Below, piece by piece: positions 462-59,049 of a DNA stretch of 64,000 nt. This stretch comes from Anaerolineae bacterium. GTDB taxonomy: Bacteria; Chloroflexota; Anaerolineae; Epilineales; JAHCIE01. The stretch spans positions 12,609-76,608 of the forward strand of contig JBDHWG010000009.1 of assembly GCA_039810085.1 (NCBI GenBank), in the 5' to 3' direction. A program made the translations under genes and the position numbers. Positions within the stretch are counted from its first letter, which is position 1; every line of letters starts with the position of its first letter. The notes beneath the pieces are model-generated. The model did not search any database. It saw only the letters and a list, made by a program, of their open reading frames with translations, and was not told the DNA's origin.

Positions 462-848
462 TTAGACACGTCTCCCGAGATACTCATCTACTGCTTCCTG
501 CAACACTTCATAATCGTTTCTATCTGTTTCAAGCGCAAGCCGCTTGATTGCCTTGATGCTCTCCGATGAGAGGTAGCTGGTAAACTTCTTTCCTGGTGAA
601 CTGACTTGCGGGCTTCCCTGCTTGATGGGTTGCCGACTTACCGGCTTCCCTCTTTGCTGGATAACTGGTTTGCTGGCAACCTGTCTTACTGGTTTAGAAG
701 GAATCTGGTTAACGGGTTTTATGGTTTGCGGACTAGTCGGCAAAACAGCGATCTGACTTTCTTCTTTACTGGTTTGCTGGTTTACAGGTTTGCTGGTAAA
801 CAGCTGCTGATCTAGGGCTGCTAGTCTTGAAAATGGGTCGTTGCTCAT
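462..848 (-). CDS. Hypothetical protein with KPV(N/R/I/S)Q tandem repeats and C-terminal ribbon-helix-helix-like segment
   Basis: 128 aa; repeats KPVNQ/KPVRQ/KPVIQ/KPVSRQ; C-term SESIKAIKRLALETDRNDYEVLQEAVDEYL resembles RHH/CopG-like DNA-binding fold; 12-bp gap to upstream ATPase gene. Confidence 0.4.
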   Translation of the reverse strand: MSNDPFSRLAALDQQLFTSKPVNQQTSKEESQIAVLPTSPQTIKPVNQIPSKPVRQVASKPVIQQRGKPVSRQPIKQGSPQVSSPGKKFTSYLSSESIKAIKRLALETDRNDYEVLQEAVDEYLGRRV

Positions 849-3062: not shown

Positions 3063-4343
3063 ATGGCCGAACCAACGAAATATGTCATGATGGACGATGC
3101 CGCTGAAATCCTAGGCTTGTCACCCGTCCGGATCCGAAAGCTGATTAAAGAGGGTGCCATTCGGACAGCCGGATCCAGCCGTGCACCCTTACTCGCCTGG
3201 GATGATGTTTGTCGGATAGCAGGAGCTCAACGTCCTCCTTGGGCACTTCTCACAAATGAGCTTGTTCATGGCTCTGTCTCGCCAGAAGGCTTGTTTCTCG
3301 CGAAACTAGAATCCGCGGATACCAACACTTCATTCGAGACCAACCAGGTCGCCAAAGGTCACTGCATTGACTGGATGAAAAAGATGCCGGCCGGTTCAGT
3401 TCAAACCGTTGTGACCTCTCCTCCATACTGGGGTGTACGCCGCTATAAAGGGGAGCAGGAGGTGCTCTGGTCTGATGGTACACGATGCGCATTTGGAGCA
3501 GAGGATACCCCTGAAGCGTATGTCCGGCATACAATGGATATCCTTAGGCACCTCAAGCGTGTGCTTCGCGATGATGGCGTCATCTGGTGGAATATTGGTG
3601 ACTCGTACCAAACGCGAACACACATTCGAGAGGGGAGTGTCGAACGGCTCCATGCCCTTGATGGACGTCGACAAGATGGGTGGAAGGACTATCCCCACAA
3701 GCGCTATTCAGCAGGGCACGATTACCTCAAGGACAAGGATCTCACCCTCGTGCCCTTCGCGGTCGCGATGGGTGCGCAACATTTAGGCTTCTGGGTGCGC
3801 TCAGTCATCATCTGGAGCAAAGAAAACACACTCCCTGAGCCGGTAAAAGATCGGCCGACCACCTCGCACGAGTATATTTTCATGCTAGTTAAGTCCCGCT
3901 TCTATTACTACGCGCATGACGTTGCTAAGGACCAAACCCGGTCAACGAAATGGGCACCCGAAGATATAGACGGCCAGCTAAAGAATTGGCGCACCGTTTG
4001 GACATTTGCGACTGCTGGGAGTGAAGACCGCAATCATACAGCAGCATTTCCTGAAGAGTTACCCAAGCGATGCATAGTAGTCAGTTCGAGACCGAACGAT
4101 CTCGTCTTTGATCCCTTTGCCGGTTCAGGAACAACGCTCGTAGTGGCAAAACGTCTTGGTCGTCAATACTTCGGCTGTGATCTGAGCGACGAATATGTTG
4201 ACGAGGCGTCTGCTCGACTGGAGCGAGAACGAGGAAGCCTTCAAGCCACACTTGAAGATGCGCTCCCACCAACAGAACTTGAGCGTGTTATAGACCAAGA
4301 GTCTGAAGCTCAGCCAAACAGAGAGCAGCTGCCACTCTTGTAA
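3063..4343 (+). CDS. DNA methyltransferase (beta-class N4-cytosine/N6-adenine) with N-terminal HTH_17/excisionase-like domain
   Basis: 426 aa; N-term DAAEILGLSPVRIRKLIKEGAIRT HTH; motif IV TSPPYWG precedes motif I FDPFAGSGTTLVVA (beta permutation). Confidence 0.85.
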   Translation: MAEPTKYVMMDDAAEILGLSPVRIRKLIKEGAIRTAGSSRAPLLAWDDVCRIAGAQRPPWALLTNELVHGSVSPEGLFLAKLESADTNTSFETNQVAKGHCIDWMKKMPAGSVQTVVTSPPYWGVRRYKGEQEVLWSDGTRCAFGAEDTPEAYVRHTMDILRHLKRVLRDDGVIWWNIGDSYQTRTHIREGSVERLHALDGRRQDGWKDYPHKRYSAGHDYLKDKDLTLVPFAVAMGAQHLGFWVRSVIIWSKENTLPEPVKDRPTTSHEYIFMLVKSRFYYYAHDVAKDQTRSTKWAPEDIDGQLKNWRTVWTFATAGSEDRNHTAAFPEELPKRCIVVSSRPNDLVFDPFAGSGTTLVVAKRLGRQYFGCDLSDEYVDEASARLERERGSLQATLEDALPPTELERVIDQESEAQPNREQLPLL

Positions 4344-4358: not shown

Positions 4359-5678
4359 CTATAAAACTGTTCTAAGCCAGGAGCCCAGTCGAGTAACTTC
4401 TGCCGGTATCTGTGACAGGTCGAAGCCATACCCATATACCATACGGTCATCCGCTGTACGGGCTTCCTGGAGGGTCGCAGTCCCATCCGTGAGGAAGATG
4501 AAGCCTCCAATGGGCGCGTTGTATGCGCTCATGTAAGCCGCAAGCTGGTAATGATCACTGCTATCCGGTTCAAACTTATACTTCACATCAAGAAGTGCCG
4601 CTGTCGTCTGAAGGGTTGTGGACGGACGAATAACGATGTCTGGCTGAAGATTGGCGTTGAATCTGCTTGGCACGGCTCGCTGGTACATAAATGGGCGCCC
4701 GCCCAACCGCACATCATCGCGCCATGAGCGAACGGCGTACATTGGCTCAAGCGCACGCGCAACAATGTTGCGAACGGCTCGCTCAAACAACCGCTCCATC
4801 GGAAGACGCAACGGCGGATACTCAATCTCCGGATGACTCGCTTGGGTTAATGCAAATCGTTCCAGTAGAAGGCGACAGAAGCGCAACACCGGTTCATAGT
4901 ATTCACGGTTCGGCGGAATCCCTCCCCGCTCCTCCAGCAATCGACAGACCGACACCGCCTCGGCTGCGGATGCATACTCGGTGATCGGTGGTAGCGTAAG
5001 CATCTGAGAATACAGTCGTTCGCGGGTTGATGCGGTTAGGGTATCTGCAGAGGCGGCAAGAATAGAGAGCGTTGTTGCAATCACCTTGTTCAGGGAAATG
5101 TCGAGGGTATACCGAACAATACGTTGATCTATCAGGAGTTGACCTCGTTCAATGCTGGTCGTCAGACTCTCGAAAAAATCAATTTCCCCCTCGGGGAACG
5201 CAGAGAGAATCCGTCGGTCCTGATCACCACCCGCCCAACCAAGACGCACAACCTCCTCCAACGTACTCAGCAATTGATCCACCAAGACATCAAGAATGGT
5301 GACGTCGGCTTCAAGGCCATAGTACACCTGCTGATCGGGTATGGTCACGGTTGGTTCATCGGCGAGAAGAAGCAGGCGAACCAATGAGACCGGCCCGCAC
5401 TTGGCATCAACCTGGAGAATAACCCCGTCTCCCAGCAACTCGGTGGTTACGGTGGGTGGACTCTTGGCCGCAATCGTGTGATAGCCGGCAACGGTGGAGA
5501 GGGAAATATCAACAACGTCGAGGGCAAGTGGGTTGATAACTAAGGGCAATTGATCTGTGGGAACTAGATACCGACCAGTCTCGCTAATACGAATCCAGCG
5601 GACGAGCTTACCGCTTCTCGTCACGGCGTTTTCAATGGCAGCAAATTGAGTGTCGGGGGCCATACCAGTATTCGGCAA
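4359..5678 (-). CDS. mcrC: McrC-like 5-methylcytosine-specific restriction system nuclease subunit
   Basis: 439 aa; C-terminal PD-(D/E)xK signature PDIVIRP...LLDVKYKF; 1-bp gap to mcrB stop. Confidence 0.75.
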   Translation of the reverse strand: MPNTGMAPDTQFAAIENAVTRSGKLVRWIRISETGRYLVPTDQLPLVINPLALDVVDISLSTVAGYHTIAAKSPPTVTTELLGDGVILQVDAKCGPVSLVRLLLLADEPTVTIPDQQVYYGLEADVTILDVLVDQLLSTLEEVVRLGWAGGDQDRRILSAFPEGEIDFFESLTTSIERGQLLIDQRIVRYTLDISLNKVIATTLSILAASADTLTASTRERLYSQMLTLPPITEYASAAEAVSVCRLLEERGGIPPNREYYEPVLRFCRLLLERFALTQASHPEIEYPPLRLPMERLFERAVRNIVARALEPMYAVRSWRDDVRLGGRPFMYQRAVPSRFNANLQPDIVIRPSTTLQTTAALLDVKYKFEPDSSDHYQLAAYMSAYNAPIGGFIFLTDGTATLQEARTADDRMVYGYGFDLSQIPAEVTRLGSWLRTVL

Positions 5679-5679
5679 T

Positions 5680-7380
5680 CTATGATCGGAATGTAGCCAT
5701 CAACGGATCAACCTGATCGGTCACAACCGATTCCTGGCGTTGCGTCAAAAACAACTGAAGAGATGGTCGCAAAACGGTCATATACCAGTCCATCAGGTCT
5801 GGTTTATCCTTGATGTCGACGAAATGGGCGTGTCCGATTGGATACTTGGTCAACTCGGTGATCTGCCGCATGACGGCAACGATCTCCATTGCATCGTCCT
5901 CTGTGAATGTACTGTGATCCACAAGAAAATCAAACATCTGCTTGTAGCTAACGGCAAAATCGACAGTGCGAAATCGGGAGAGCAATGCGTAGTCGAGTGG
6001 GTACGTCAAGCGGTCGAGTGTGTTCATGGTTGCAATGAGCAGCAGTTGTTTGGGGATGACAATGTTGCCCCCGCCGTGTGGTAGCGGCAAAGACGTGCCC
6101 CGATAGCCCATCTCGATCAGATGAAACCCCTCTCCAAAGACGGCTGCAACATTGGCCCGATTCAGTTCTTCAATGATCACCACTGATGGTCGATCAGCAT
6201 TACGCTGACAATGCCGAAGAAACAGTCCGGGTTCAGCGGCGAAGTCGAGCGCACCTTGGGTCAGTTTCGGTGTGAGACGTTGGATAAAATCGCCATACCG
6301 CCATTCTTGATGAAACTGGACATGGAGAACGCGCTCCGCCCAGAGAGCGGGATCTGCTGCCTCGGTCGCCTGAAGGTAATCCTCCGCAATATGGACTGCG
6401 CTATACGACTTGCCCGTTCTGGGAGCGCCCGTCAACAGAACGTTCAGTTGACCCTTCTGGATTATTCGTCGCGTAAGTTCAATTGGATCAGTTGCATGCT
6501 CCTGGCTAATCCCCAGAAGCTGCGCGTTAAATTGCATTTGCGCCATGCTACTTGCCTCTCGTAGTCGGATCTCAAAAGGATCGACCTGGCCAAACAAGAT
6601 AAGGTGGTTGTATTCCTCTTCGTCACGATCTTGTTCGAAATCGTCTGTCTGAAGGTTAGGGGCTGATGATCGTTGCGTAAAAAGAAAATACAGTTCCTCG
6701 TCCGAAAGCGAGAGTCGTGACCGCACCAAATGCGCAAGCTGGTCAAAGTTCGGCTGGACCTCGAAAACTTCATTACGGCAACACCAAATGACAAATGGAA
6801 TCCAGGGGATACTACAAAGCCTATGCTCATCAGGCCCAAAGAAAATCGGTGCTGCATCAAGGTATTTAGGTCGCAGTCGAAGGCGCGCACCTTGACCTTG
6901 TTCAGCCTCGATAAGCTCGAAGAGAAACTCACGCGGTCTCAAACCGTATCGTTGCTCCTGCTTATCGAACCAATCGTTCTTGAGTCTGGTCCAGATAACG
7001 CTTCGGTTACTGTCCTCTTTGCGCAGGAGATACCGCCGGTTATCACTGATTGGGAAAAATAGGGGGTAGCCAACAGTTCTTGAAACGCCTTGAGGTGCAG
7101 AGGGGAGGGGCGGTTGATTATTCTGAAGGGTGCCATTTTCAACGCTTAATTGCACGAGTGAACTAAATGAGTCGCTGATCCACGCTAGATATCGAAGTGC
7201 GTCCGTCGGCTTGTTCGCTGACGTGATTTTTACCTCGCTGGCAATATTCCCCTCGATTCTAGCACCGTCATACTTCAATGCTAGAAAGACGATGATATCA
7301 CTATGTGCTGTTCCGAAGAGCGAGCGAGCTGCTCGGGCAATGAGTTTTGGTTTCAAGCGAAACACGGGACCGGACCTCAT
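5680..7380 (-). CDS. mcrB: McrB-like AAA+ GTPase subunit of type IV restriction system, with unassigned approximately 300-aa N-terminal DNA-reading domain
   Basis: 566 aa; LLTGAPRTGKS Walker A, VVIIEELNRANVAAVFGEGFHLIE and LLLIATMNTLDRL motifs characteristic of McrB. Confidence 0.85.
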   Translation of the reverse strand: MRSGPVFRLKPKLIARAARSLFGTAHSDIIVFLALKYDGARIEGNIASEVKITSANKPTDALRYLAWISDSFSSLVQLSVENGTLQNNQPPLPSAPQGVSRTVGYPLFFPISDNRRYLLRKEDSNRSVIWTRLKNDWFDKQEQRYGLRPREFLFELIEAEQGQGARLRLRPKYLDAAPIFFGPDEHRLCSIPWIPFVIWCCRNEVFEVQPNFDQLAHLVRSRLSLSDEELYFLFTQRSSAPNLQTDDFEQDRDEEEYNHLILFGQVDPFEIRLREASSMAQMQFNAQLLGISQEHATDPIELTRRIIQKGQLNVLLTGAPRTGKSYSAVHIAEDYLQATEAADPALWAERVLHVQFHQEWRYGDFIQRLTPKLTQGALDFAAEPGLFLRHCQRNADRPSVVIIEELNRANVAAVFGEGFHLIEMGYRGTSLPLPHGGGNIVIPKQLLLIATMNTLDRLTYPLDYALLSRFRTVDFAVSYKQMFDFLVDHSTFTEDDAMEIVAVMRQITELTKYPIGHAHFVDIKDKPDLMDWYMTVLRPSLQLFLTQRQESVVTDQVDPLMATFRS

Positions 7381-8100: not shown

Positions 8101-8517
8101 ATGGCGGACCACTTTCTGGACACTAACCTCATTATCCGCTACTTGACCAAGGACAATACCGACCAGGCAGCTCGTGCCTATTATGTTTTCCAGAGGCTGG
8201 AGACCGGCCAATTAACAGTCGCAATGTGCGAAGGCGTGCTCATTGAAGCAGTGCAGGTACTTTCTTCCAAACGGCTCTATAATGTTTCGCGTCAAGACAT
8301 TCGCATGCATCTCTCGACCATCATCCAGCTCCAAGGAGTCAAAATCCCCAACAAGCGCACATACCTTCGCGCACTGGATCTGTACGCTTCAACAACTCTC
8401 GATTTTGTTGATGTGCTGATTGTCGCCCATATGGAGCGCACGAAGGTACGCAGCGTCCTTAGTTTCGACCAGGGCTTTGACAGTATCACGGGAATCAGCA
8501 GACAGGAACCCGAGTAG
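8101..8517 (+). CDS. vapC: PIN-domain toxin VapC
   Basis: 138 aa; FLDTNLIIRYL...VDVLIVAHME...SFD PIN acidic residues; 6-bp gap after vapB. Confidence 0.8.
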   Translation: MADHFLDTNLIIRYLTKDNTDQAARAYYVFQRLETGQLTVAMCEGVLIEAVQVLSSKRLYNVSRQDIRMHLSTIIQLQGVKIPNKRTYLRALDLYASTTLDFVDVLIVAHMERTKVRSVLSFDQGFDSITGISRQEPE

Positions 8518-14290: not shown

Positions 14291-14875
14291 TCAAAATCCC
14301 AGGCCACGCTCTTTCAGACTTGTGAAACCGCTTCGGCCAACAACAATGTGGTCGAGCAACTCCACTTCAAGGATCCGCCCGGCTTCAACTAGGGTCTTGG
14401 TCACCCGAACGTCATCTCTGCTGGGCGTCACATCGCCCGATGGGTGATTATGAACCATGATAATGGCGTGGGCGTTGTCGAGAATGGCCGGCCGAAACAC
14501 CTCAGCGGGGCGAACGGGGCTGCTATTGAGGGTGCCCTGGTACACCATCGGACAGGAGATGATCCGGTTCTTGGTGTCGAGTGTAATGACGCGGACCTGT
14601 TCTTGGTCAAGATCCTCCATCTCAACCCGAACAAATTCATAGGCATCACGGGGACTGGTGATCTGAAGTGCATCCTCCCGAGGTCGCCCGGTCTTTGCCT
14701 CATAAAGGCGTGAGGCTTCGGCGATAAACCAGCGTAGGAGGTGGACAAACTCGGCTTCATCGGGCCGCAAGAAACTCATTTGGGCTTCATGGACTCGTCG
14801 GACTCGTCGTTCTTGGGGCAGCGGCATAGTCGAGCCAGTATAGCATATGGGGTGTAGGACTGGTGTTGATATCAC
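14291..14875 (-). CDS. radC: RadC-like JAB/MPN domain protein
   Basis: 194 aa; JAMM motif HNHPSGDVTPSRDD and C-terminal LKERGLGF; start uncertain (GTG 14875 or ATG 14827). Confidence 0.8.
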   Translation of the reverse strand: MISTPVLHPICYTGSTMPLPQERRVRRVHEAQMSFLRPDEAEFVHLLRWFIAEASRLYEAKTGRPREDALQITSPRDAYEFVRVEMEDLDQEQVRVITLDTKNRIISCPMVYQGTLNSSPVRPAEVFRPAILDNAHAIIMVHNHPSGDVTPSRDDVRVTKTLVEAGRILEVELLDHIVVGRSGFTSLKERGLGF

Positions 14876-15554: not shown

Positions 15555-16535
15555 GTGACTTATAATGTCTGCATGACTACAGAACATGGTCGCCAAGTCT
15601 ATGACGAACAATTTAAGGACGAAACAGTACGGGCTCTCGGTGAAAGTGGAATGACACTTACTGCATTTGCTCGGGTTCGAGGGATACCACGAACAACCTT
15701 GTGGGATTGGAAACACGGAGGCATTCAGGGAGAAGAAGCTGTAGGAAGTCCAAGAAGCCTCCTATCCACTGAAGATGGGGAACGACTGCCAACTCGTCCT
15801 AAATTAGGTATATTTATTGACGACGAACCACTCAAATTTAAAAAATGGGAGAGAGTTTTTACACTGGAAGGCTTTGAAAGTCTCACTCCAGATCAAATGC
15901 TCCATGATGGCATGTCGGATACTCAAACTATTCAAGCTTTAGATCAATGGATGGATTTACTAATTCATCTTCCTGACCGAGCTCTCAAAGATGTTGAGAT
16001 TGTGGTCATCGATCAGTTCAATTTCTCTCAGTATCTACAGATGAAAGCAAAACACTTAATAAATCGACTTCGTAGCGTTAACACAATGGCATGGGTTTTG
16101 GAAACTAGTGGAGTGGTTGAGCCACATGTATATGAGGGAACAAATGCTGTTCTTGACGCGCTTGATACCACTCAGGCAATTGACCTAGTAGAAGATGCTC
16201 CATTAACTTTATCAGCTCGTATTCAAGCATTTAAAATATTTACATTGACCCCATTCCTTGAAGCACAAAAGGCCGATACAGTAAATGATGATGAAAAATA
16301 TAGTCCTTCGGAAGGATTGAACAAATTAATAAGTCACAGGAAATTCAATGAAGCACTGGCTGCTATAGGGATATCTGAGAGAGAGTTTTTTAGCATTTTA
16401 GCACTTAAGCGAGATGATGACCTGCGCCCTATTGTGCATGATTTAGGGAATCTCATGGGGCATATGATACTTGATCATGGTGATGAATATTACACAATGT
16501 CGGTAGACAAGCTGCGACGGCTTCTTCGAAGGTAA
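15555..16535 (+). CDS. Hypothetical protein with N-terminal IS3-OrfA-like HTH (HTH_Tnp_1-like) fused to an unassigned AT-rich-encoded domain
   Basis: 326 aa; YDEQFKDETVRALGESGMTLTAFARVRGIPRTTLWDWK resembles IS3/IS911 OrfA HTH; remainder of gene markedly AT-rich relative to surroundings. Confidence 0.5.
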   Translation: MTYNVCMTTEHGRQVYDEQFKDETVRALGESGMTLTAFARVRGIPRTTLWDWKHGGIQGEEAVGSPRSLLSTEDGERLPTRPKLGIFIDDEPLKFKKWERVFTLEGFESLTPDQMLHDGMSDTQTIQALDQWMDLLIHLPDRALKDVEIVVIDQFNFSQYLQMKAKHLINRLRSVNTMAWVLETSGVVEPHVYEGTNAVLDALDTTQAIDLVEDAPLTLSARIQAFKIFTLTPFLEAQKADTVNDDEKYSPSEGLNKLISHRKFNEALAAIGISEREFFSILALKRDDDLRPIVHDLGNLMGHMILDHGDEYYTMSVDKLRRLLRR

Positions 16536-16588
16536 TTCTTCTGACCAGCGCAATTCTTCTGGACGGCTCGGCAGGTCGTCATTCTGCT

Positions 16589-16987
16589 TTACCGTCGTGC
16601 CCATTGTTCCAGTGTATCTATGACACGTTTGATAGCCGAAACGCACCTTTGTGCATCGCTTACCGACACGTCACGCTCTGCGTTATGAATAATGTTGTTC
16701 CTCTTCTTGATGGCCTCAGCAACGACTTCAATATCGGTCTCATTTATACCTGCTAGTCCTTTGATCGTGCCAAGGCCAATGTTCACAAACGCGCTTAGCC
16801 CCATGTGTTCAATGAGTTTATCGAGGTGGTCCTGATTGAGCGAGGAAGCACCTGGAAGCCGGGTGATGGCCGTCGGAGCAACTTGTCGTGCAGTTGCCTC
16901 CAATGCTATGACAGCCTCTATAATCGCTATACGTCCGTTGCCTTCCTCTAGGTGGCTAATACTATTCGCTATAAGAACCTCACGCAC
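16589..16987 (-). CDS. Small HEPN-motif protein (KKRNNIIHN, Rx4H)
   Basis: 132 aa, all-helical; Rx4H motif near C-terminus as in HepT/DUF86-like HEPN toxins. Confidence 0.5.
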   Translation of the reverse strand: MREVLIANSISHLEEGNGRIAIIEAVIALEATARQVAPTAITRLPGASSLNQDHLDKLIEHMGLSAFVNIGLGTIKGLAGINETDIEVVAEAIKKRNNIIHNAERDVSVSDAQRCVSAIKRVIDTLEQWARR

Positions 16988-17101
16988 GGGAGGCTTCTTG
17001 TTACTGTCAACAAGTTGTTGAAGCTCCTGCCAGTTCGTGCTACCTAGTGGAGTCGATAACCTGGTGCCTACTTTTGCCCCTGCTCGGGAACCGATCTCGT
17101 G

Positions 17102-17644
17102 CTATTCGTGCTCGCTGTAGTAAGTCAAGCCAACATCGCCTATCCTTCTCATCGGAGGTTCAAAAACCAATGGACGCCATTTGCCATCTTCATCTAGCCA
17201 GAGTGAATGACCACAACTGTTAAATAGTTCGACGTATGGGCTTACTGGATCAACCGGGAGCGTCTCAAGCCAGTATTGTTTCAGGACGTTTCGAACGTAA
17301 CCTGCGAAGCGGTTGTAGGTTGTCGAGACAATCACCCAGACCAGCCGATAAAACTCCTTTAGCTCGTCAGTTATCTCGCCATCTCGAAGTGCTTGTATTA
17401 CTCTGGCATTTGGTGTCGGAAGATCTGTTTCGATAACGAGATCGTGCCAAAAATAGGCGGTTTGATCGGTCGGATCGTCGGTGTAGAGGATATTGCCTGA
17501 AGGCGCTCGGACAGAGAGCCAAACGGAGTATATTCCATTCTCGATGGTGAACTGCAATCGATTAGTTTCTACGAGTGGATCAGAAGGTGAGATCCACAAG
17601 GACTCCCACAGCATGAGGGATATCTTCAACTGCATGGTTGTCAC
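17102..17644 (-). CDS. Hypothetical protein (180 aa), upstream partner of small HEPN gene
   Basis: No recognisable motif (no GSx9-13DxD nucleotidyltransferase signature). Confidence 0.45.
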   Translation of the reverse strand: MTTMQLKISLMLWESLWISPSDPLVETNRLQFTIENGIYSVWLSVRAPSGNILYTDDPTDQTAYFWHDLVIETDLPTPNARVIQALRDGEITDELKEFYRLVWVIVSTTYNRFAGYVRNVLKQYWLETLPVDPVSPYVELFNSCGHSLWLDEDGKWRPLVFEPPMRRIGDVGLTYYSEHE

Positions 17645-17707
17645 CTGGCTTTAGTGAACGGAGAGCTCAAGCCGTAATTATAGCCTCGCCTCACGAATTG
17701 TCGAAGG

Positions 17708-18001
17708 TTAGGTGGTCTGATGCTGCCTCTTGAGTTCGTCTAGGCGCTCCAAAATCCACATACGAGCCAATGTGGTTGGCCCAATCCCTTTCTTTTTCGC
17801 CAGAGTGCGGAGTTCCTCCAATGTATCTGGGTCAAGCCGAACGGTCACACCGCCAGAGAGATTCTTGGCAAACCTAACATCTACGGGCTTCCATTGATGC
17901 CAGTAGTCAGTAAAGCTATGCGTATCCCAAAACGCTGCCTCTTCCTCCCTAGTTTTGAAGTCTGGGATTGGCAGTGATGTCTTCTTTGATGTATCGGTCA
18001 T
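17708..18001 (-). CDS. brnA: BrnA antitoxin (CopG/RHH-like)
   Basis: 97 aa; DPDTLEELRTLAKKKGIGPTTLARMWILERL typical of BrnA. Confidence 0.75.
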   Translation of the reverse strand: MTDTSKKTSLPIPDFKTREEEAAFWDTHSFTDYWHQWKPVDVRFAKNLSGGVTVRLDPDTLEELRTLAKKKGIGPTTLARMWILERLDELKRQHQTT

Positions 18002-18285
18002 GCTGCGTGTTCACCCCCTTTGTCTCTTTGGTAATCTCTTCTCTCTTTCTTATCTGCGGATCGAGCGGTGACGGGATAATAAACGCCCTGACCCTCTGGA
18101 TCGAGAACAACGGCAAGCATACGTCCATCGAGCGTTGGCCCAATGACCATAATGCGCCCTTTGTAGCTCTCGCGAATGATATAATCGCCCTGGCAAACAT
18201 CTTCAACGTCCTGCTGTGTGACCCCGTGCCGTGCAATATGCTCCGTGTTCCAGGTATCCCAAAGAAGGCGAGCAATGACTATCAT
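17998..18285 (-). CDS. brnT: BrnT toxin (RelE-like fold, DUF497)
   Basis: 95 aa; WDTWNTEHIARHGVTQQDVEDV...RIMVIG...RMLAVV typical BrnT; ATGA overlap with brnA. Confidence 0.75.
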   Translation of the reverse strand: MIVIARLLWDTWNTEHIARHGVTQQDVEDVCQGDYIIRESYKGRIMVIGPTLDGRMLAVVLDPEGQGVYYPVTARSADKKERRDYQRDKGGEHAA

Positions 18286-18287
18286 AC

Positions 18288-18318
18288 AACGAACGCATCA
18301 TAACATAATGCGTTCGTT
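18288..18318. promoter_or_regulatory. Inverted repeat AACGAACGCAT-N9-ATGCGTTCGTT immediately upstream of brnT start (putative operator)
   Basis: 11-bp perfect arms read in sequence, 3 nt from brnT ATG. Confidence 0.3.
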
Positions 18319-18652
18319 GAAACAAGGGGTTCGGTTGTACTCTATGTCGCCTAATGCTCATTTTACGTCATGAGGGCATAGTGGGGTTTTAGGCGTTGGG
18401 ATGAGGTTTTTTCAATTATGGAGAAGACGGGCGCAAGAGGGATGAGCCGAGTTTCAACCTATAACCGTCGGTCGAGCTGGCTCTAGGCCACAAAAAAAGA
18501 GAACTGACGACAGGAAGACTTGGGAGTAAAGAGAGCGCGTTTCGCGCAGAAGCACCAGTTGGCGCACTCTTCGTCCATTGTCGATCCTTTTTCTTGTCGT
18601 AGTTCTCTTTCTTCAGCGCTCCAAGCGCTGACCTCATTCCTCGCGGATGATT

Positions 18653-19471
18653 TTACTCGGCCGGGGTCGCGCCCGCGTTCTGATCGCGCATGTGGTTCTC
18701 AAGGATCTCCACAAGAAGGTGGACTTCAGCAGAACTGAGGAGGTACCACCACCCGGCAAGGTTGACCACTTTGGTAGCAGTCTGAGTAGTAGGCTCGTCT
18801 TCGCCCCGGAAAACGCTCATCGTCGCCCTCCTCTCATCCAGAGCCTTCCCAAGCTTCACTTGGAGGTCCGCATCCAGAAGGTACTCCTTGCCCTGGAGGG
18901 TGATCGTCACATGTGGGGGCTGAAGCGTCTCGGGGATCTCGAAGGGCTCGATGATCTCGTTCTCCCTCTCGGTCTTGAGTCTGAGCGCCCATGGCTCCCA
19001 ACTCTCCCAGAGGTCGGAGATGATCTTGTTGTCCGGGGTGCGCTTCCGCGGCAGCTTGTTCTCCTTCAGAGGTGTATCGAGGTAGGTGTGAAAGATGTCC
19101 GGTATGCGCGTCGGCGTGTACTTGTTGTTCTCGTACACGCTTTTCTCAATCAACGCGTTGATCAGCACCTGTTGGCTCGGACTGGCAGAGTCATAGATTT
19201 CGAGCATCGATGAGATCAGGTCGAAAGTGGAGGGACCGGCCTCCTCATCGGCGTTGATGCCTAGCGCCTTCTTCTCCACCAGGTCGACCTCCAGCTCATA
19301 TGAGATCACCACCTTTCCGCGCACGGTCTGCACCTCTCCCGCTTTGATTCTGCGGTTGAGCTCCTCTCTGGAGATCCCCAGGTGATTCGCCGCCTCATTC
19401 AAAGTCATGTTCTTGCTATCTACCGCCGTCATAGCCATCGCTGTCTCCTTCGGGCATTCTGCCCTTTGCAT
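18653..19471 (-). CDS. Hypothetical protein with N-terminal HTH_17/MerR-excisionase-like HTH
   Basis: 272 aa; MTLNEAANHLGISREELNRRIKAGEV; remainder unassigned. Confidence 0.5.
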   Translation of the reverse strand: MQRAECPKETAMAMTAVDSKNMTLNEAANHLGISREELNRRIKAGEVQTVRGKVVISYELEVDLVEKKALGINADEEAGPSTFDLISSMLEIYDSASPSQQVLINALIEKSVYENNKYTPTRIPDIFHTYLDTPLKENKLPRKRTPDNKIISDLWESWEPWALRLKTERENEIIEPFEIPETLQPPHVTITLQGKEYLLDADLQVKLGKALDERRATMSVFRGEDEPTTQTATKVVNLAGWWYLLSSAEVHLLVEILENHMRDQNAGATPAE

Positions 19472-20140: not shown

Positions 20141-20275
20141 GCGGACGGAGGCGGTAGCTGGTTTGCCGGCTGTCAATACGTGTGTATACTCAGAGGTGAG
20201 GCCACTATCACATCTGGAACCGGATGGTTGTCCGAAACGGCACGGCAATTTGAGAGACCACATTGCGTATCAAAC

Positions 20276-20620
20276 ATGGTGATGCTGGAAATGTCGCTGC
20301 TCGACCATGAGCAGCTGCGCGTTTTGCTGCTCGACACAAAGAACAAGGTGCATGGCATTGTCACTGTCTATAAAGGCACAGTCAACAGTAGCCAGGTGCG
20401 CGTCGCCGAGGTATTCAAGGACGCCGTGCGCCACAATCACCCAGCGATCATCGTCGTCCACAACCACCCGTCGGGCGACCCGACGCCGAGCCGTGACGAC
20501 GTGCGCGTGACGCGAGAAATGGTGCAGGCGGGCGAGCTGCTGGGCATTAACGTGCTGGACCACATCGTCATCGGCCAGCAGAAGTTCGTCAGCATGAAAG
20601 AGCGCGGGCTAGGCTTTTGA
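20276..20620 (+). CDS. radC: RadC-like JAB domain protein, N-terminally truncated paralog
   Basis: 114 aa from ATG 20276; [18 protein letters not shown]...MKERGLGF, roughly two-thirds identical by eye to 14291-14875 product over the JAB domain. Confidence 0.7.
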
Positions 20621-28666: not shown

Positions 28667-28703
28667 CAAGACCTGACAGGTTTTGGAAACCTGTCAGGTC
28701 TTG
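28667..28703. repeat. Perfect 37-bp palindrome CAAGACCTGACAGGTTTTGGAAACCTGTCAGGTCTTG in the 68-bp intergenic gap between two GT-C genes
   Basis: 17-bp arms read directly; core shared with 39372-39400. Confidence 0.5.
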
Positions 28704-32038: not shown

Positions 32039-34731
32039 GGCTTCACCGTAATGTGGCCCAGGACAGCGTGGTCGCCCTCGGTATCCGCGCCCTGAGCAAG
32101 CAGGCGCTGGAGCGTTTTGGCATCGTAGAGACCGACGCGCAAGGGGTAGCTGCCCGGCAGCGTGGACGGGTCAATCGAGATACTGCGCGACTCGATAATC
32201 GTCTCGCCCGGCTGCCACTGTGACGTGGGGCTGGCGCCGGATGCGGGCCAGCTGTCACTCTGGCCGTGAATAATGTCGTCCTCGACGTGGGCAAAAACAC
32301 TCAGGTCTGCCCCCACTTTATCCGTTGGCTGCCAGAAGAGCGTCAGGCCGAACGGCTCACCGGCTTTCACAATCGACGAGGTCAGCTCATAGCCCAACAA
32401 CCGCACCGAGCCGAGCATGGCGTCTGTGCGCATGGCGGGCGGCGCTTCCGCGAGCGCCTGGCCGATGGGGAAGGTCGGGCCGAGATATGGGTCGAAGCGC
32501 GCAGCATCCGCCAGGGTGTAGTAGCGCGGGGCAGCCACCGGGTCCCGGCTGTAGATGCGCAGCTTGGGCGCGCCGTCGGCATCCACGTCCGCCAACAGGT
32601 GATACTCCTTCTCGATGCGGTTGAGCGGAATTTTCACCGCGTCCTGCACATCCTGGGCAACGATGTAGTAGCGCGGGTTGGCGGCGGAGCGCACCGCTCC
32701 GCGCGTGTACCAGCCCGTGACCAGCGGCTCCTCGTTGCTGTCGTAGTCGCCCTGGAGCGTGCCGTCGGCGAAAAGCGAGCCGACGATGCTCCAGCCCGCC
32801 TGGTACGGGAAGCCGAAGTAGCCGCTACTCGGGGGACGATCACCATAGACGGCGGGGTACAACGGGCTGCGCGCCGCGGGATAGATGCGTTTATACTCTG
32901 GGCTGTGGCTCACGAACGCTATCCAGATGTAGCCGCCGAGCAACAAAACGAGTAGCCCGCCGACAGCCATGAGGGCAAAGCGCGCCGAGCGCCCGAATCG
33001 CGCCTGGACACCTTGCGCCAGTGCCGCCACGCCAAGGCCCGCGAGAAGCGCCGCGCCGGGCATCATGGTGTAGAAATGGGTGGTCGGCTTCTGCGTCAAG
33101 AAGCTCGCCACCAGGAACGGCCCCAGGAACCACAGGAGTGTCGCCTTCACGCCGTCGTCGAGGCGCGGCGCCAGCGCCCACAGCAAGAGCGGCAGAAAGA
33201 GAAATAGCGAGAGGTTGTACTTGCCAACGCGCAACGCTTCCGGCGCGGCGGCAGCGACCGCCAGGGCCAGCACAGGCCAGGCCAGGGCAAGCCACCGCCC
33301 GTGGCGGAAGCCACGCCAGCCGAGCCAGGCAAACACCGCGACGAGCGCCACGGCGAGCAGGACAATGTACCACGTCGAGTTGTAGAATGTCGCGCGCAGG
33401 AAGTAGTCGGCCAGCTTGTTATACAGCGGCCCACCAGCCGCCGCCGCATTGCCGACGCCGACGCGGCGGTTGATGATATAGTCAACTGTCTCACGGAAGT
33501 GGGGGTGCAGCGCGAACGGCGCGTAGAAGAAGGCCGCAATGGCCGCACATACCGCCGTCGGCGCCATCAGCCCACGCAGCCCACCCCGCCGCCACAGCAG
33601 GTACGCCACCGGCGGGATGGCGAAGACGGCCTCGTAGTGGCCCAGGCTCCCCGCCGCGACGAGCGCCCCTGCGACGACAGCCCACCGCATTCGCCCGCCC
33701 TGGTAGTAGCGCCACGCCGCCCATACCGCGACAATCGATGTGAGCGCGACGATGCTCTGGTACTGCACGATGCGGCCAAACGCCACAAAGTAGCCATCCA
33801 GCGCCAGGATCAGCGCAGCGACCAGCCCCTCACCCCCTAGCCCCCTCTCCCAAAATGGGAGAGGGGGAACAAGAGGGGCGTTCTGGCTCCCCTTCCCCGC
33901 TTGTGGGGGAAGGGGCTGCAAGAGCATGTCATCGCGAGCAGAGCGAAGCGATCCCTCACCGGGAGATTGCTTCGCTGACGCTCGCAATGACACATCAGGG
34001 CCTGACGAGAACAGCCGCCAGCCGAGCGCGCCGATGCCAAATACAGCGGCGACGTTCATCAGGGCGAAGGGCAACCGCGCCGAGGACTCGTCGATGCCAT
34101 CCGTCGCCGCCCAGACGAGCGCCGGCATGAGCACCTCGCCCGGCGCTTTCTTGTGGAAGAACAGGATTTCGCTGCGTCCCTGCCCCAACCCCGCCGCCAT
34201 CAGCATGGCGCGCGCCTCGTCGCCCTGGAACTCGGAGTAGCTCAGGAACGTCAGGCGGAAGACCAGGGCCAGGGCGACCGGGACCGCCAGCCACCACAGA
34301 GCGCGCACGCGAACAATTGCCGGACGCGCGGCGGTCGTTCCGAGGGCCAGCCAGCCCGCCAGAACGAGCAGCGCGCCGTCGAAAGCAAGTAGCACCGGGG
34401 CGCGGGTCATGGGCGTCGGCAGGTAAGCGACCGCGAGGCTCAAGACCAGAGCGCCCGCTACCGCTAGCGCCGCATCGAGGGCGAGGCGCTCCGGCCACGC
34501 GACGCTTTCGCCAGCCATCAACCGCTCGGCGACAAGCACACCGGGCAGAGCAAACAGAACGATGGCAGCCGTAGCGCGGACGAACAAGGGAACGGGGAGG
34601 AAGAGGAGGAGGTTCGCAACCAGCGCGACAGCAAGCGCAACCAGGGCAAACCATGCCCAAGGCCGCGCGGCGAGGCGTGTCGCGGGAGAAGCGGGGCCGG
34701 CGCCGGCCATCGGGAGACCCGAATCGGCCAT
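32035..34731 (-). CDS. GT-C fold membrane glycosyltransferase (paralog 3) carrying an approximately 57-aa low-complexity in-frame insertion
   Basis: 898 aa; GDE motif, TM-rich N-half, C-term LGYELTSSIVKAGEPFGLTLFWQP...VFAHVEDD...GSYPLRVGLYD repeat. Confidence 0.75.
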   Translation of the reverse strand: MADSGLPMAGAGPASPATRLAARPWAWFALVALAVALVANLLLFLPVPLFVRATAAIVLFALPGVLVAERLMAGESVAWPERLALDAALAVAGALVLSLAVAYLPTPMTRAPVLLAFDGALLVLAGWLALGTTAARPAIVRVRALWWLAVPVALALVFRLTFLSYSEFQGDEARAMLMAAGLGQGRSEILFFHKKAPGEVLMPALVWAATDGIDESSARLPFALMNVAAVFGIGALGWRLFSSGPDVSLRASAKQSPGEGSLRSARDDMLLQPLPPQAGKGSQNAPLVPPLPFWERGLGGEGLVAALILALDGYFVAFGRIVQYQSIVALTSIVAVWAAWRYYQGGRMRWAVVAGALVAAGSLGHYEAVFAIPPVAYLLWRRGGLRGLMAPTAVCAAIAAFFYAPFALHPHFRETVDYIINRRVGVGNAAAAGGPLYNKLADYFLRATFYNSTWYIVLLAVALVAVFAWLGWRGFRHGRWLALAWPVLALAVAAAAPEALRVGKYNLSLFLFLPLLLWALAPRLDDGVKATLLWFLGPFLVASFLTQKPTTHFYTMMPGAALLAGLGVAALAQGVQARFGRSARFALMAVGGLLVLLLGGYIWIAFVSHSPEYKRIYPAARSPLYPAVYGDRPPSSGYFGFPYQAGWSIVGSLFADGTLQGDYDSNEEPLVTGWYTRGAVRSAANPRYYIVAQDVQDAVKIPLNRIEKEYHLLADVDADGAPKLRIYSRDPVAAPRYYTLADAARFDPYLGPTFPIGQALAEAPPAMRTDAMLGSVRLLGYELTSSIVKAGEPFGLTLFWQPTDKVGADLSVFAHVEDDIIHGQSDSWPASGASPTSQWQPGETIIESRSISIDPSTLPGSYPLRVGLYDAKTLQRLLAQGADTEGDHAVLGHITVKP
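33826..33995. repeat. Composite palindromic element inside GT-C paralog 3 CDS: G-rich hairpins (33841-33867, 33889-33915) plus a 64-bp imperfect palindrome (33928-33991)
   Basis: CCCCCTCTCCCA-AAA-TGGGAGAGGGGG; CCCCTTCCCC-GCTTGT-GGGGGAAGGGG; GTCATCGCGAGC...GCTCGCAATGAC also seen at 50548-50610 and 59213-59249. Confidence 0.5.
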
Positions 34732-37826: not shown

Positions 37827-39878
37827 CTAGGGGTGAGGGACCGGCGTCGCCAACTGCACGTAATCGCCTTCGACGCGCTGCCCGTCCACTGTGACCGGCA
37901 GCCGCGCGCCGCTCGCCAGGTCATACATGCCTACCTGGAGCCATAGCTCGCTCGGCGCGTCAGGCGGGAGGGTGATGGAGCGTTCGTCGACGATAATCTG
38001 CCCTGGGTCCCAGGTCGAGGCTGGCGAGACGCCATGCTCGGGCTGGCCGTCGCTCTGCCCGTAGCCCTTGCCACTCGCATCCACCAGGTGCGCGAACACC
38101 GTGTAGTCGATGTCTTGCCCCGCAATGGCGCGCGAGTAGAGCGTGAGGTTAACCTTCTTGCCGTCGGTCGCCAGGGCATAGCCGAGCAGGTCGGCGGCAT
38201 CGCCGAGACGGGCACTCTGCGGGTGCTGAATCTCGGCCGGGTCGAAGCGGCGATAGAGAACGCGGTCCTTCTCGCGCATCGCCGGCACGTAGCGCGCCTT
38301 GATCCAGGCCATGTAACCGTCGAGGCGGTCCAGCCGTCCGTTCCAGAGGACGATGGCGGGCGGATTATACTTAGCCACCGTTGCGATGGCTTCCTCGTTG
38401 GTGAGCTGCCCGGTCTCGATGCGCTTGGAACTTTGCGCCGCAAGCCACGGAATCTGCGTGCGACCGGCGCGAAAAGCAATCATGGGCGGGTCGGCGACGA
38501 TGATGTCCGTCGGCGTCGTGTGCGTCTTGACCCAGTCGGCCGCCGCCAGGAGCGAGCGGTACGGGCCAGGGTCAATCAGATCGCCCAGGTCGGACGCCTG
38601 CCCCGGCGCACGCACCGCGATGAGCGCCAGGGCCGCCAGGGTAACGGCGACCGACACCGCGCCCGATTGACGCGGCGCACGCAGGCTGTCCCATACCCCG
38701 GCGACACCGACAGCGGCCAGAGCGACCAGGGGAAAAAGGAACAGCATGAAGTGATGCTTGGCGAACAGCGGGCGCTGATTGACCAGGACAAGCGCCGTGA
38801 GCGCCAGCCAGCCGAGCATGACCAGGCCGGCATAGCTCCGCCGCCGCAAGAGCGTCCACGCGCCGACAACCGCGAGCGCCGTCACGCCCAGGTTCTCGAC
38901 GGTCATGTACTCCAGAAGCCACTGGGCATACTCCGGCGTCCGGTTAGGCCAAACGTCTCGCGCGGCGAGAGGTGTTGCAAGCGCCTGCGCCATGAAGCCG
39001 CGTACATCGAAAAACAGGAGAAAGGGCGCCCCCACGAGAAGTAGGCCGACGGCCAGGGCAGCCATGCCGCGCCCCGCCTCGCGTACGCGGTTCGGCGCGC
39101 GCCAGACGCCGGGTAGGGCAAAGGCGGCGAGCGGCGCGCTGTAGAGCGCGGCGGTCAGCTTGAGCCACAGCCCCCCGCTGAGGAACACACCCGCCAGGAA
39201 CAGCCAACGCGCCCGTCCCGTATGACCATAGATCAATGCCAGAGCTACCGCCAGCGTTGCCAGACTGACAGAGGGAATGTCGTGGCTGACGGAGCGCGCC
39301 AGCCAGAAGAAATTGGGCGCGAGCGCCATAAGCAGAGGCGCGGCGACAGCGGCGATACCCGGGTTGAGCAGACCTGACAGGTTTTGAAAACCTGTCAGGT
39401 ATGTGCCGGTAATGCGATCCCGCCGCGCCGAGACGCAGATGCCGGCGGCGAGACTCGCGACGGCGGCCAGGCCGAGCAGCCCATACAGAAGAACGACGAG
39501 CCGCCCGCTCTCGACACTCTCACCGAAGACGCGGAAGCCAGCCAACAGCGACAGGGGAACGCCCGGCGGCTGGTCCAGCCAGATGTCGCTGTACAGCCGA
39601 TACCCCTGTCCCATGAGCTGCGCCTGCACAAGCTGGATGCCCTCGTCCGCGTCCCACTGCGTCGCCGACAGCCAGCGCGAGTAGACAAGCCCGACGACGA
39701 CAACCACAAGCGCAACGCCAATTACCGCCACTACCGTCGCCAGCCCCCATTGTACAAGTGGCTTATTGAATTCTTTCGTCTGGACCTCGGTAGCCAGCTT
39801 CTCTCTCCCTACCCCGCCGTTTTTCCTCTGTGTCCTCTGTGACATCTCTCCGTTCACAACGGCTTCAATGGTACGCAA
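37827..39878 (-). CDS. GT-C fold membrane glycosyltransferase (PMT_2/ArnT-like, paralog 4) with one C-terminal beta-domain
   Basis: 683 aa; WDADEGIQL motif after TM1; C-term NLTLYSRAIAGQDIDYTVFAHLVDASG...WLQVGMYDLASGARLP. Confidence 0.75.
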   Translation of the reverse strand: MRTIEAVVNGEMSQRTQRKNGGVGREKLATEVQTKEFNKPLVQWGLATVVAVIGVALVVVVVGLVYSRWLSATQWDADEGIQLVQAQLMGQGYRLYSDIWLDQPPGVPLSLLAGFRVFGESVESGRLVVLLYGLLGLAAVASLAAGICVSARRDRITGTYLTGFQNLSGLLNPGIAAVAAPLLMALAPNFFWLARSVSHDIPSVSLATLAVALALIYGHTGRARWLFLAGVFLSGGLWLKLTAALYSAPLAAFALPGVWRAPNRVREAGRGMAALAVGLLLVGAPFLLFFDVRGFMAQALATPLAARDVWPNRTPEYAQWLLEYMTVENLGVTALAVVGAWTLLRRRSYAGLVMLGWLALTALVLVNQRPLFAKHHFMLFLFPLVALAAVGVAGVWDSLRAPRQSGAVSVAVTLAALALIAVRAPGQASDLGDLIDPGPYRSLLAAADWVKTHTTPTDIIVADPPMIAFRAGRTQIPWLAAQSSKRIETGQLTNEEAIATVAKYNPPAIVLWNGRLDRLDGYMAWIKARYVPAMREKDRVLYRRFDPAEIQHPQSARLGDAADLLGYALATDGKKVNLTLYSRAIAGQDIDYTVFAHLVDASGKGYGQSDGQPEHGVSPASTWDPGQIIVDERSITLPPDAPSELWLQVGMYDLASGARLPVTVDGQRVEGDYVQLATPVPHP
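39372..39400. repeat. Perfect 29-bp palindrome ACCTGACAGGTTTT-G-AAAACCTGTCAGGT embedded in-frame in GT-C paralog 4 (encodes TGFQNLSGL)
   Basis: 14-bp arms read directly; same core as 28667-28703. Confidence 0.5.
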
Positions 39879-42858: not shown

Positions 42859-44863
42859 TCATTTTAGTAGCATCTCCGGTGTCACCTGGACTTTGCCCAG
42901 CGACACGCTCTCGCCCAACGGTCTGCCATCCGGCCCACTCACCGCCAGGTTGTGCTGCTCGCGCGCGTCCCACATGCGCACCTGCACGTCATACCCGCCA
43001 GGCGCCAGGTCTTTCGGGAGGTCGAGGACGGTCACACCGCGCACGGGCACACCGACGGGAAAGGCGGCGGTCGCCAGCCAGGCCGTGCTCGGCGCCTGGT
43101 TGTGTGTCGCCACAACGCGGCCCGAGGCATCCACCAGGTTGACGGTAACGGTGTAGTCTCGGTCGAGCGTCTGCTCAGCCCGCCAGTAGAAGATCCAGCG
43201 CAGCGCGCCCGGCTCGTCGCCGAACGGATCGACGCCGGTGAGCGTGAGCCGGTCGGCGTATGTCGCGCCCACTGGCTGCTGCGGCGTCGGGATGGCGACG
43301 ACGGGCGACCAGTCCTTGATGTTGAAGCGCATCAGGGTGTAGCCCGGTATCTGGGTGCGGATGAACGGCTCCCCCTCGCTGCGCCGGGACAGCTCAGCCA
43401 GCACCATCCCCGTGGGATCGGCAAACTCGTGGTGCCACAGGATGACCCAGACGCGCCCGGGGTGACGCGCCAGGAGATCGTTCAGCACACGCGCGCCGTT
43501 CTCGAAGTCGTAGCCAACGTGGATGCCCCACTGGGGCGTCGTGCCCTTGTAGTAATAGTTGAAGGCATACGGCGCATCTTCGACCAGCACGATGGCGTCA
43601 TCGTCGGCGCGGGCGCGGTCCATGAGGTACTGCGCCATCCGACGCGCGTCCTCCTGCGGCGACCACGAGGTTTGCGCAGCGCGCACGGCCTCGCGTCCTG
43701 AGAAGGCGAGCGCTGCGACGAGAATGACAACGTAGGCCAGGCGAAAGACCTGCTGACGCCGCCACAGGGCCTCGAACGCGAGCATCACCAGCGCCACGTA
43801 GAGCGCCGGCGCAGCGACGATGGCATAGCGCGCCGCGAACTTGGGCGCAAGCGTTACGGCCACCCCTGTGAGAGCAATCGGAATCGCCGCCGCGAGGACG
43901 ACCAACAGCTCACGCCGCGCCAGGCTCTTGTCTCGCAGCCAGCGTCGAATCAGGAACAGCGCCGCGCCCACGACCGCGAGCCCCAGCAAGAGCAGCGCCA
44001 GACGTGTCGAACCGATGGCGAGGAAGCTGCCCAGGATGCGGCCAATGACGCCTAGCGGATCCAACTCCGCCGGGAAGAAGTCGGGGTGGGCGGCCAGCCG
44101 CGCCATCTGGGCTGCCGTAGGCGCAAGCCACGGGAGATAGGCGATGAACGCCAGGGATGCAGCCGCCAGCCAGCGCAGGAACACACGGCGTCCGGCTAGC
44201 GCCGCATAGATGAACAGGGCGGGCAGCAGAAGCGCGGTGAGGTAGAGCGTGTACAGCATCCCGGCCAGCGCCGCGCCATGCAACGCCCACGGCCACACGT
44301 CTATCCAGTTTCTGATACCCCTCTGCTCCCCCTCTCCCTTTGTGGGAGAGGGGGGTGGGGGGGGGGGTACTCCGCGTCGCCCGCAGCAGGGTTGCCACGG
44401 CTAGTAGACCCCACATCGCAGCCAGGCTGTACATGCGCGCTTCCTGCGACGTGTAGATGAGGAACGGCGATAGGGCGACCAGGAGCGCGGCGGGAACGGC
44501 CGCGAACAGCGCTGCGATGCTCGAGCGCGTGCGGCCCGCGTAGACTTCGGCCAGGGTGACGTAGGCGAGGGGAATCAGCAGAACGCCGGGCGCGAGGCTG
44601 ACCCAGCGCACGGCAAACTCGCTCTGGCCCGCGACAAGCATCCAGGCATGGAGGAGCAGATAGTACAGCGGGGGGTGCAGGTCCTCCCGCACCAGGGTGG
44701 TCATCATGGCGGGCAAGGGGCGGCCCGCGAAATTGACGCTCAACCCCTCGTCAAACCACAGGCTCGCATCGCCCAGGGACCAGACCCTAGCAGTGAAGGC
44801 GACAAGTGTCACCCCCAGCATCGCCAAGGATGCCCAGCGCAACGGGCCAAACGATTTCGTCAT
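42859..44863 (-). pseudogene. GT-C fold glycosyltransferase (paralog 5) interrupted by a single frameshift at a G11/C11 homopolymer; N-part 44368-44863, C-part 42859-44367
   Basis: ORF 43910-44863 has WFDEGLSVNFA GT-C N-terminus then loses frame at TPPPTPLS (poly-C); ORF 42859-44298 continues the TM-rich body in another frame. Confidence 0.6.
44350..44367. repeat. Homopolymeric tract G6-T-G11
   Basis: Read directly: GGGGGGTGGGGGGGGGGG; coincides with the frame switch between ORFs 43910-44863 and 42859-44298. Confidence 0.6.
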
Positions 44864-58861: not shown

Positions 58862-59049
58862 AAAAAAATGTCTCTCCATGCGCACAGAGAGACACTGCTG
58901 CAAGGTCTCTCATCTTTCAGGCGCTTCGCCTGCCGGAGTTGGCACCAGGCGCGGATGATCTCGGCTGGCGAGCTTACGCTCGCGTCACGATCCGGGCTGG
59001 TTGCCGGGGCTTCACAGGGCCGTTCCCTCCACCCCTCTGGATAAGAGCC
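58862..59049 (-). ncRNA. SAM-I (S-box) riboswitch with intrinsic terminator, in the leader of the mtnA-pfkB-GNAT-ahcY-metK operon
   Basis: Minus-strand RNA reads CUCUUAUCCAGAGGGGUGGAGGGAACGGCCCUGUGAAGCCCCGGCAACC...GGUGCCAACUCCGGCAGGCGAAGCGCCUGAAAGAUGAGAG, then terminator GUCUCUC-N10-GAGAGAC-AUUUUUUU. Confidence 0.8.

Follow-up and report, generated by a model that had tools for sequence, protein, structure and literature searches.

A HEPN-family gene split by an in-frame TAG, most likely a recent pseudogene, beside an independent brnTA pair

Introduction

BrnT and BrnA form a type II toxin-antitoxin (TA) pair, the prototype of which is reportedly that of Brucella abortus, said to have been described by Heaton et al. 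in 2012. HEPN proteins are found, among others, as single-protein abortive-infection or defence effectors, such as HepS of Gifsy-1, Tha of S. aureus prophages, AbiV and the HEPN proteins of the AbiD/F type. In the HEPN-MNT modules of types II and VII (SO_3166/SO_3165, 5yep; 7ae2; 8xdj), toxin and partner are separate genes, the partner being an adjacent MNT nucleotidyltransferase gene. The HEPN superfamily is defined by the motif Rx4-6H, the arginine of which is directly followed by a polar residue (N/D/H), and by a conserved upstream acidic residue, typically in E-x3-[KR] (PMC3710099). For the Ribo L-PSP-HEPN proteins, a fusion with endoRNase L-PSP and an operon with ParB were described (Anantharaman et al. 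2013, PMC3710099).

The locus analysed here lies in a stretch of 64 kb of DNA from an Anaerolineae bacterium, in the following called the window. A sequence-only reading had proposed a four-gene operon, in which brnT and brnA are followed by a 180-aa protein as non-canonical antitoxin and a 132-aa HEPN toxin.

Results

Layout of the locus

Three genes rather than four were found on the minus strand, comprising brnT, brnA and one HEPN-family gene that is split by a stop codon. The features of the locus are as follows:

18287-18319, no strand: inverted repeat and candidate operator, ending 1 nt 5' of the brnT ATG
17998-18285, minus strand: brnT-like toxin gene, 95 aa, with a PF04365 match
17708-18001, minus strand: brnA-type ribbon-helix-helix (RHH) antitoxin gene, 97 aa, PF12441 CopG_antitoxin
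17677-17704, minus strand: predicted sigma-70-like promoter, TCGACA-16 nt-TATAAT, 11 of 12 consensus positions
17105-17635, minus strand: 5' part of the split gene, coding for 177 aa when started at ATG 17635, N-domain HMM E 1.4e-30
17102-17104, minus strand: in-frame TAG dividing the gene, within the variable inter-domain linker
16988-17101, minus strand: 38 codons of conserved family sequence, with W205 among them, between the TAG and GTG 16987 as the earliest possible restart
16589-16987, minus strand: ORF of 132 aa that makes up a full minimal HEPN domain (Rx4H 16702..16685, E-x3-R 16900..16886)
16562-16580, plus strand: hairpin between convergent gene ends, terminator-like on the plus strand

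The ORFs of 180 aa (17644..17102) and 132 aa (16987..16589) named in the sequence-only reading are both present, and the gap from brnA to GTG 17644 on the same strand is 63 nt, as had been claimed. The motif KKRNNIIHN was likewise found in the 132-aa ORF, with R at 16702..16700 and H at 16687..16685. The convergent neighbour (15555-16535, plus strand) encodes 326 aa (320 aa in the public call) and is parted from the end of the HEPN gene by the hairpin at 16562-16580; apart from a weak match to an HTH at the N-terminus (IS66 TnpA-like, E about 0.01), its protein could be assigned to no family. An Rfam search of the locus region gave no match, and the only direct repeats around the locus were one chance-level pair of 19-mers.

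The brnTA pair

The identification of the first two genes as brnTA is supported by a BrnT_toxin match that spans the whole profile but stays just under the Pfam cutoff, and by the adjacent, overlapping CopG/RHH antitoxin. The toxin matched the Pfam family BrnT_toxin (PF04365/DUF497) with an E of 7.5e-8 over profile positions 1-77 of 77, and identical metagenome copies of brnT carry a precomputed PF04365 match. For the antitoxin, PF12441 CopG_antitoxin was determined with 53.2 bits compared to a cutoff of 28, while the matches to RHH_1 and BrnA_antitoxin (Pfam, NCBIfam) were weak. The window pair resembles BrnT/BrnA in the toxin-first order, the overlap of 4 nt (ATGA), the palindrome at the promoter-proximal end and the profile matched end to end. 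It differs in that the score of the toxin (33.0 bits) lies 1.5 bits under the Pfam cutoff of 34.5 and in that the antitoxin fits best to PF12441 and not to PF14384 BrnA_antitoxin.

An 11-bp perfect inverted repeat had been reported 3 nt 5' of brnT. The repeat is real, but its arms comprise 12 bp and its distance to the ATG is 1 nt. The perfect arms CAACGAACGCAT/ATGCGTTCGTTG lie at 18319-18308 and 18298-18287 with a spacer of 9 nt, while an alternative pairing gives 15-nt arms (18287-18301 and 18305-18319) with one mismatch (93%) and a 3-nt loop. It is the sole perfect inverted repeat of at least 11 bp in the low-GC first 20 kb of the window. In composition-preserving shuffles of the 64-kb window, a mean of 0.53 such repeats was obtained, with at least one in 38% of the shuffles. 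The palindrome is therefore credible as an operator because of its position and not because of the shuffle statistics, and this position suggests 18287-18319 as a candidate operator for the RHH antitoxin. We regard brnT-brnA as an ordinary, self-contained type II TA pair that is probably autoregulated via the palindrome at its start.

Connection of brnTA to the HEPN-family gene

Four nucleotides after the brnA stop, the predicted near-consensus promoter TCGACA-16-TATAAT begins, which matches 11 of 12 positions and is the only promoter-like site in 16300-18700. Judged from its sequence and place, it is probably the own promoter of the HEPN-family gene. A terminator-like hairpin on the minus strand was not found between brnA and the next ORF, so that transcripts of brnTA may run on into the HEPN-family gene. 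When the BrnT and BrnA of the window were compared by tblastn with 32 homologous loci (191 kb), no match at E <= 0.01 was obtained. On the contig of the family member P0102, known from gene calls only, a BrnT lies about 790 bp downstream of that member in a cluster of TA pairs, which we read as clustering within a TA/defence island. Altogether, brnTA and the HEPN-family gene are unrelated neighbours with no conserved link. The promoter-like site after brnA and the absence of brnTA from the 32 homologous loci speak against the proposed four-gene operon, and no evidence of a functional unit of four genes was obtained.

One gene split by a TAG

Translation of 17653..16589 in one frame is continuous except for a single internal stop (TAG 17104..17102). 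The 180-aa and the 132-aa ORF share this frame, and the TAG and 38 sense codons lie between them. Counted from ATG 17635, the gene has a length of about 348 codons (17635..16589, minus strand). This ATG is a more probable start of the N-terminal ORF than GTG 17644, since AGGTGA (17646-17641) is located 5 nt upstream, the N-termini of the homologues agree (M-x-L-[KR]-[LI] at this position) and the public call P0001 has 177 aa. For GTG 16987, a weak Shine-Dalgarno (SD)-like AAGAAG was found 6 nt upstream. The C-domain HMM match of the window begins 17 codons upstream of this GTG, and therefore the codons between TAG and GTG encode conserved family sequence. Among them, W205 is conserved to at least 90% among 101 relatives.

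The TAG is located exactly at the domain boundary. Its column is a gap in 99 of the 101 aligned relatives, which marks a lineage-specific linker insertion, and none of the 101 has a stop there. Apart from the TAG, neither half carries a lesion, and all key residues are retained. The 180-aa and the 132-aa ORFs are two halves of one gene. The notion of a separate 180-aa partner gene beside a small HEPN toxin is contradicted by the shared frame, the one stop and the relatives that span both parts in single ORFs.

Relatives of the fused product

While a word-indexed homologue search with the fused product gave no match, an exhaustive phmmer search with the read-through product yielded 272 proteins at E <= 1e-3 and 67 at E <= 1e-10, among them P0001 and P0008 as the window genome's own fragments. 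Apart from these fragments, the best matches comprise 330-370 aa, and the alignment with them begins in the N-terminal region and runs on to the C-terminus. P0002 (342 aa) spans query positions 52-350 and P0003 (340 aa) positions 4-349, and the same behaviour was observed for P0012 and P0029. P0002, P0003, P0154 and P0159 are intact relatives. Separate HMMs of the N- and C-parts were run on the stop-to-stop segments of all fetched loci. Both domains were found in one uninterrupted ORF at 16 independent loci (L006, L008-L011, L013, L020-L026, L032, L034 and L037). At about nine further loci, the C-domain lies in an ORF of full-length size with an N-part too diverged to score, which brings the independent relatives with a single ORF to about 25. 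When the indexed database was searched with a profile, 12 matches were obtained, every one named "hypothetical protein" (Mariprofundus sp. KV and Microbulbifer mangrovi being two of the sources), and a profile search of genome contigs gave at least three family loci, including Bathyarchaeia and Spirochaetia metagenome-assembled genomes (MAGs). Conservation was determined in alignments of 15 and of 101 relatives, and the metagenome scan used the alignment of 15 sequences. Family members are built of an N-terminal alpha/beta domain and a HEPN domain at the C-terminus, joined by a linker that varies; in the HEPN domain, the catalytic motif RNxxxH is intact and preceded by E-x3-[KR].

The HEPN domain

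The Rx4H motif of the window copy reads R315-N316-N-I-I-H320 with the polar N after the R, as the superfamily definition describes it. R315 and H320 are invariant in the 15 relatives and conserved to at least 90% in the 101. The upstream acidic residue is found in E249-A-T-A-R253, where E249 is conserved to at least 90% and the consensus is ALExxxK. This half of the protein is an all-alpha, up-and-down helical bundle, as is the HEPN fold. The assignment of the 132-aa ORF to HEPN is borne out by these three features. As a HEPN domain, it may act as a metal-independent endoribonuclease.

PF18735 HEPN_RiboL-PSP was the only sequence family matched by the HEPN half. The window copy showed an E of 3.8e-4, and 8 of 15 relatives matched at E <= 0.01 (best 2.3e-5), all of them under the gathering threshold. 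The 132-aa ORF of the window scored 20.8 bits and its fused product 18.3 bits, both of which lie under this threshold of 28.4 bits, and no Pfam domain above threshold was found in any family member searched. The family shares the conserved RNxxxH motif with PF18735. It differs in that just the C-terminal 70 residues of the profile align and in that neither the endoRNase L-PSP fusion nor the ParB operon was seen around the family.

The N-terminal domain

In the AlphaFold2 model based on the alignment of 101 sequences, the whole read-through product forms a single compact protein (pLDDT 87.2, pTM 0.86). Low confidence was confined to residues about 161-190 around the TAG; the variable linker between the domains comprises residues about 166-199. 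The N-terminal 177 aa modelled alone (pLDDT 83.7) gave an alpha/beta domain, in which a long helix has the family motif Y-x-R-N-x3-Q-Y-W-L at its end. Sequence searches of this part against Pfam, NCBIfam, PADLOC and PDB gave no family, and a BFVD fold search with the domain gave nothing. In the models, the N-domain is an alpha/beta domain with no recognisable fold relative.

Neither an NTase-like structural match nor a GSx10DxD motif was found in the 177/180-aa piece. The lack of the MNT signature GSx(n)DxD, which had been pointed out before, was hence confirmed and extends to the NTase fold, and the proposed check for a recognisable MNT turned out negative (no Pfam/NCBIfam match, no NTase-like structure). 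Compared to the HEPN-MNT modules, the window comprises no adjacent MNT nucleotidyltransferase gene. Its place is taken by the N-terminal domain of the same protein, to which the HEPN part is covalently fused in essentially every relative, and separate toxin and partner genes are not the rule of this family, which has one ORF in 16 independent loci.

Genomic setting

The family gene is solitary, and its neighbours are unrelated between the loci. In L006, the locus of the closest intact relative P0002, it belongs to an integrative element with HTH_17, Rep_1 and a tyrosine integrase. At L011 it is found at a DUF3987-primase island, and at L013 it comes directly after a type I restriction-modification (R-M) system in which MazEF is embedded. 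An IMG/VR viral contig carries it next to a repressor and an R-M pair, and in the Bathyarchaeia and Spirochaetia MAGs it is located between housekeeping genes. PADLOC-DB 2.0 gave no meaningful match for the pieces of the window and none for the 15 relatives, and no match was obtained by tblastn in annotated plasmids and phages. As a side observation, a gene for a DUF4145 protein, which we take to be another HEPN-like family, follows the P0002 gene on the same strand after 30 nt (L006, 8534-9175).

The window itself shows a sharp step in G+C, from about 50% at 1 to about 20,000 to about 65% in the rest. The low-GC block comprises, besides the locus:

861-1742: AAA_22 ATPase
2446-2940: DUF2321
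3063-4343: N6_N4 DNA methylase
4359-7380: McrBC-like genes
8101-8517: PIN protein
18653-19471: HTH_17/excisionase-like protein
14291-14875, minus strand, and 20180-20620, plus strand: RadC genes, listed with this block

It is probably a horizontally acquired defence/TA island, the left end of which lies outside the window. A degenerate repeat with a period of 8 nt (TTGCTGGT-like) was observed at 428-803, in or beside ORF 462-848 (minus strand), its 9 copies being in register. Either a repeat array or a repeat protein of low complexity is implied.

In the high-GC part, the perfect palindrome ACCTGACAGGTTT... occurs twice (28669-28701 and 39372-39400), and so does a different one, CCCCCTCTCCC... 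(33841-33867 and 44328-44354). These may be an intergenic palindromic element or shared terminators. A SAM-I riboswitch (Rfam RF00162, 85.8 bits) was found at 58907-59047 on the minus strand. It is followed by a gene (57766-58830), the relatives of which with at least 90% identity are named S-methyl-5-thioribose-1-phosphate isomerase; a methionine adenosyltransferase gene is located nearby (53346-54587).

Further copies of the split gene

Six metagenome contigs from independent assemblies or runs (ERZ27268135, ERZ27299002, ERZ27298999, ERZ27268162, SRR14610241 and SRR8929703) are 100% identical to the window over the overlap. The TAG is present in the four that reach the stop, and the N-domain ORF of a fifth ends there too. 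In one allele, which differs by a single T-to-N exchange in the protein, the ORF ends at this stop as well, while the other copies are identical. Since independent contigs and a second allele carry it, the TAG does not stem from a mistake in a single assembly. No tRNA or suppressor gene was found within the 64-kb window and no other TAG-split real gene in the low-GC island, on which grounds an alternative genetic code or suppressor was rejected.

Disrupted copies were also observed among the relatives. The HEPN domain of L031 (1353-1742) is interrupted by an in-frame stop, and an N-domain could not be detected there; L004 (1-533) shows a frameshift in the linker region. Short HEPN-only matches, considered as natural two-gene versions, gave no solid evidence of a recurrent fission, since P0018 and P0109 are located at contig ends and P0013 is frameshifted. 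The P0102 contig (JGI 3300059473, gene calls only) carries a 155-aa ORF (1260-1727) and a 153-aa HEPN-family ORF (1833-2294) in the same frame and 105 nt apart. P0102 could be a second linker-split copy with the layout of the window. The cluster of TA genes on this contig comprises DUF4160/DUF2442 upstream and BrnT and HTH_3 downstream.

Discussion

With a probability of about 0.68, we consider the locus to be one nonsense-split gene of a HEPN family beside an independent brnTA pair, in which the family would combine a sensor with a HEPN domain and the window copy is most likely a recent pseudogene. A recent nonsense mutation would have turned the gene into a pseudogene, from which promoter and SD could still yield an N-terminal fragment of 177 aa, while the HEPN part would be left without a good start of its own. 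The window copy would thereby have lost its function.

That all four ORFs share one strand and lie close together, and that brnA is followed by no terminator-like minus-strand hairpin before the next ORF, would also suit an operon in which an unrelated 180-aa protein is the non-canonical antitoxin of a separate HEPN toxin, co-regulated with brnTA. The single frame with one stop, the single-ORF relatives over both parts, the strong promoter-like site and the loci devoid of brnTA make this explanation very improbable. Even less credit can be given to a sequencing or assembly error in an otherwise intact gene: the source appears to be a metagenome-assembled genome, but identical independent contigs carry the TAG, and the T-to-N allele ends at the same position.

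The remaining explanations regard the linker TAG as a working arrangement, either a fission into a two-piece module or a dose-limiting read-through of low frequency, which we hold to be doubtful. In a functional fission, the 177-aa N-domain and the 132-aa HEPN protein from GTG 16987 would associate non-covalently, the N-domain acting in trans as antitoxin or sensor, an idea that comes near to the sequence-only reading. Such a fission would fit the intact halves, the stop at the very domain boundary and a 132-aa product that is a complete minimal HEPN. However, the restart at this GTG loses about 20 conserved residues with the near-invariant W205 and two conserved helices (190-214), and it relies on a weak SD and a GTG start, while about 25 independent relatives manage with a single ORF. 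Linker breaks are moreover over-represented among the short matches, which were picked for their shortness, and those checked were contig-end fragments or frameshifts; a fission is therefore unlikely. Leaky or programmed read-through by near-cognate or suppressor decoding, by which a toxic effector would be kept at low dose, agrees with a single in-frame stop in a tolerant linker with the rest intact, and with the stability of this stop in all six recovered copies (where reached) and the second allele. It is nonetheless decidedly improbable, given a window without tRNA or suppressor gene, a low-GC island without other TAG-interrupted genes, a stop position that is not conserved (gap in 99 of 101, stop in 0) and other disrupted copies that are broken elsewhere or by other means. 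If the TAG did work, the locus would be a natural snapshot of two-gene HEPN toxin/partner systems arising from, or interconverting with, fused ones.

Under the preferred reading of a nonsense-split gene, the public calls of 177-aa and 132-aa (or 71-aa) hypothetical proteins are an annotation trap, which can lead to a false story of a "non-canonical HEPN antitoxin". The intact family is uncharacterised and solitary and belongs to the known kind of single-chain HEPN effectors. A role in defence or abortive infection is suggested by its sparse occurrence across the domains of life, its solitary genes and their location in mobile elements and defence islands, which is typical of such genes. By analogy to the single-chain HepS, Tha and AbiV, the N-terminal domain would hold the HEPN RNase silent until a trigger is sensed, probably a phage component. 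After triggering, the HEPN domain would cleave cellular RNA, resulting in abortive infection. This unnamed family is widespread, counting at least 272 cluster representatives, which come from bacteria, archaea and a single viral contig. It may reasonably be put forward as a candidate for a new abortive-infection system that consists of one gene.
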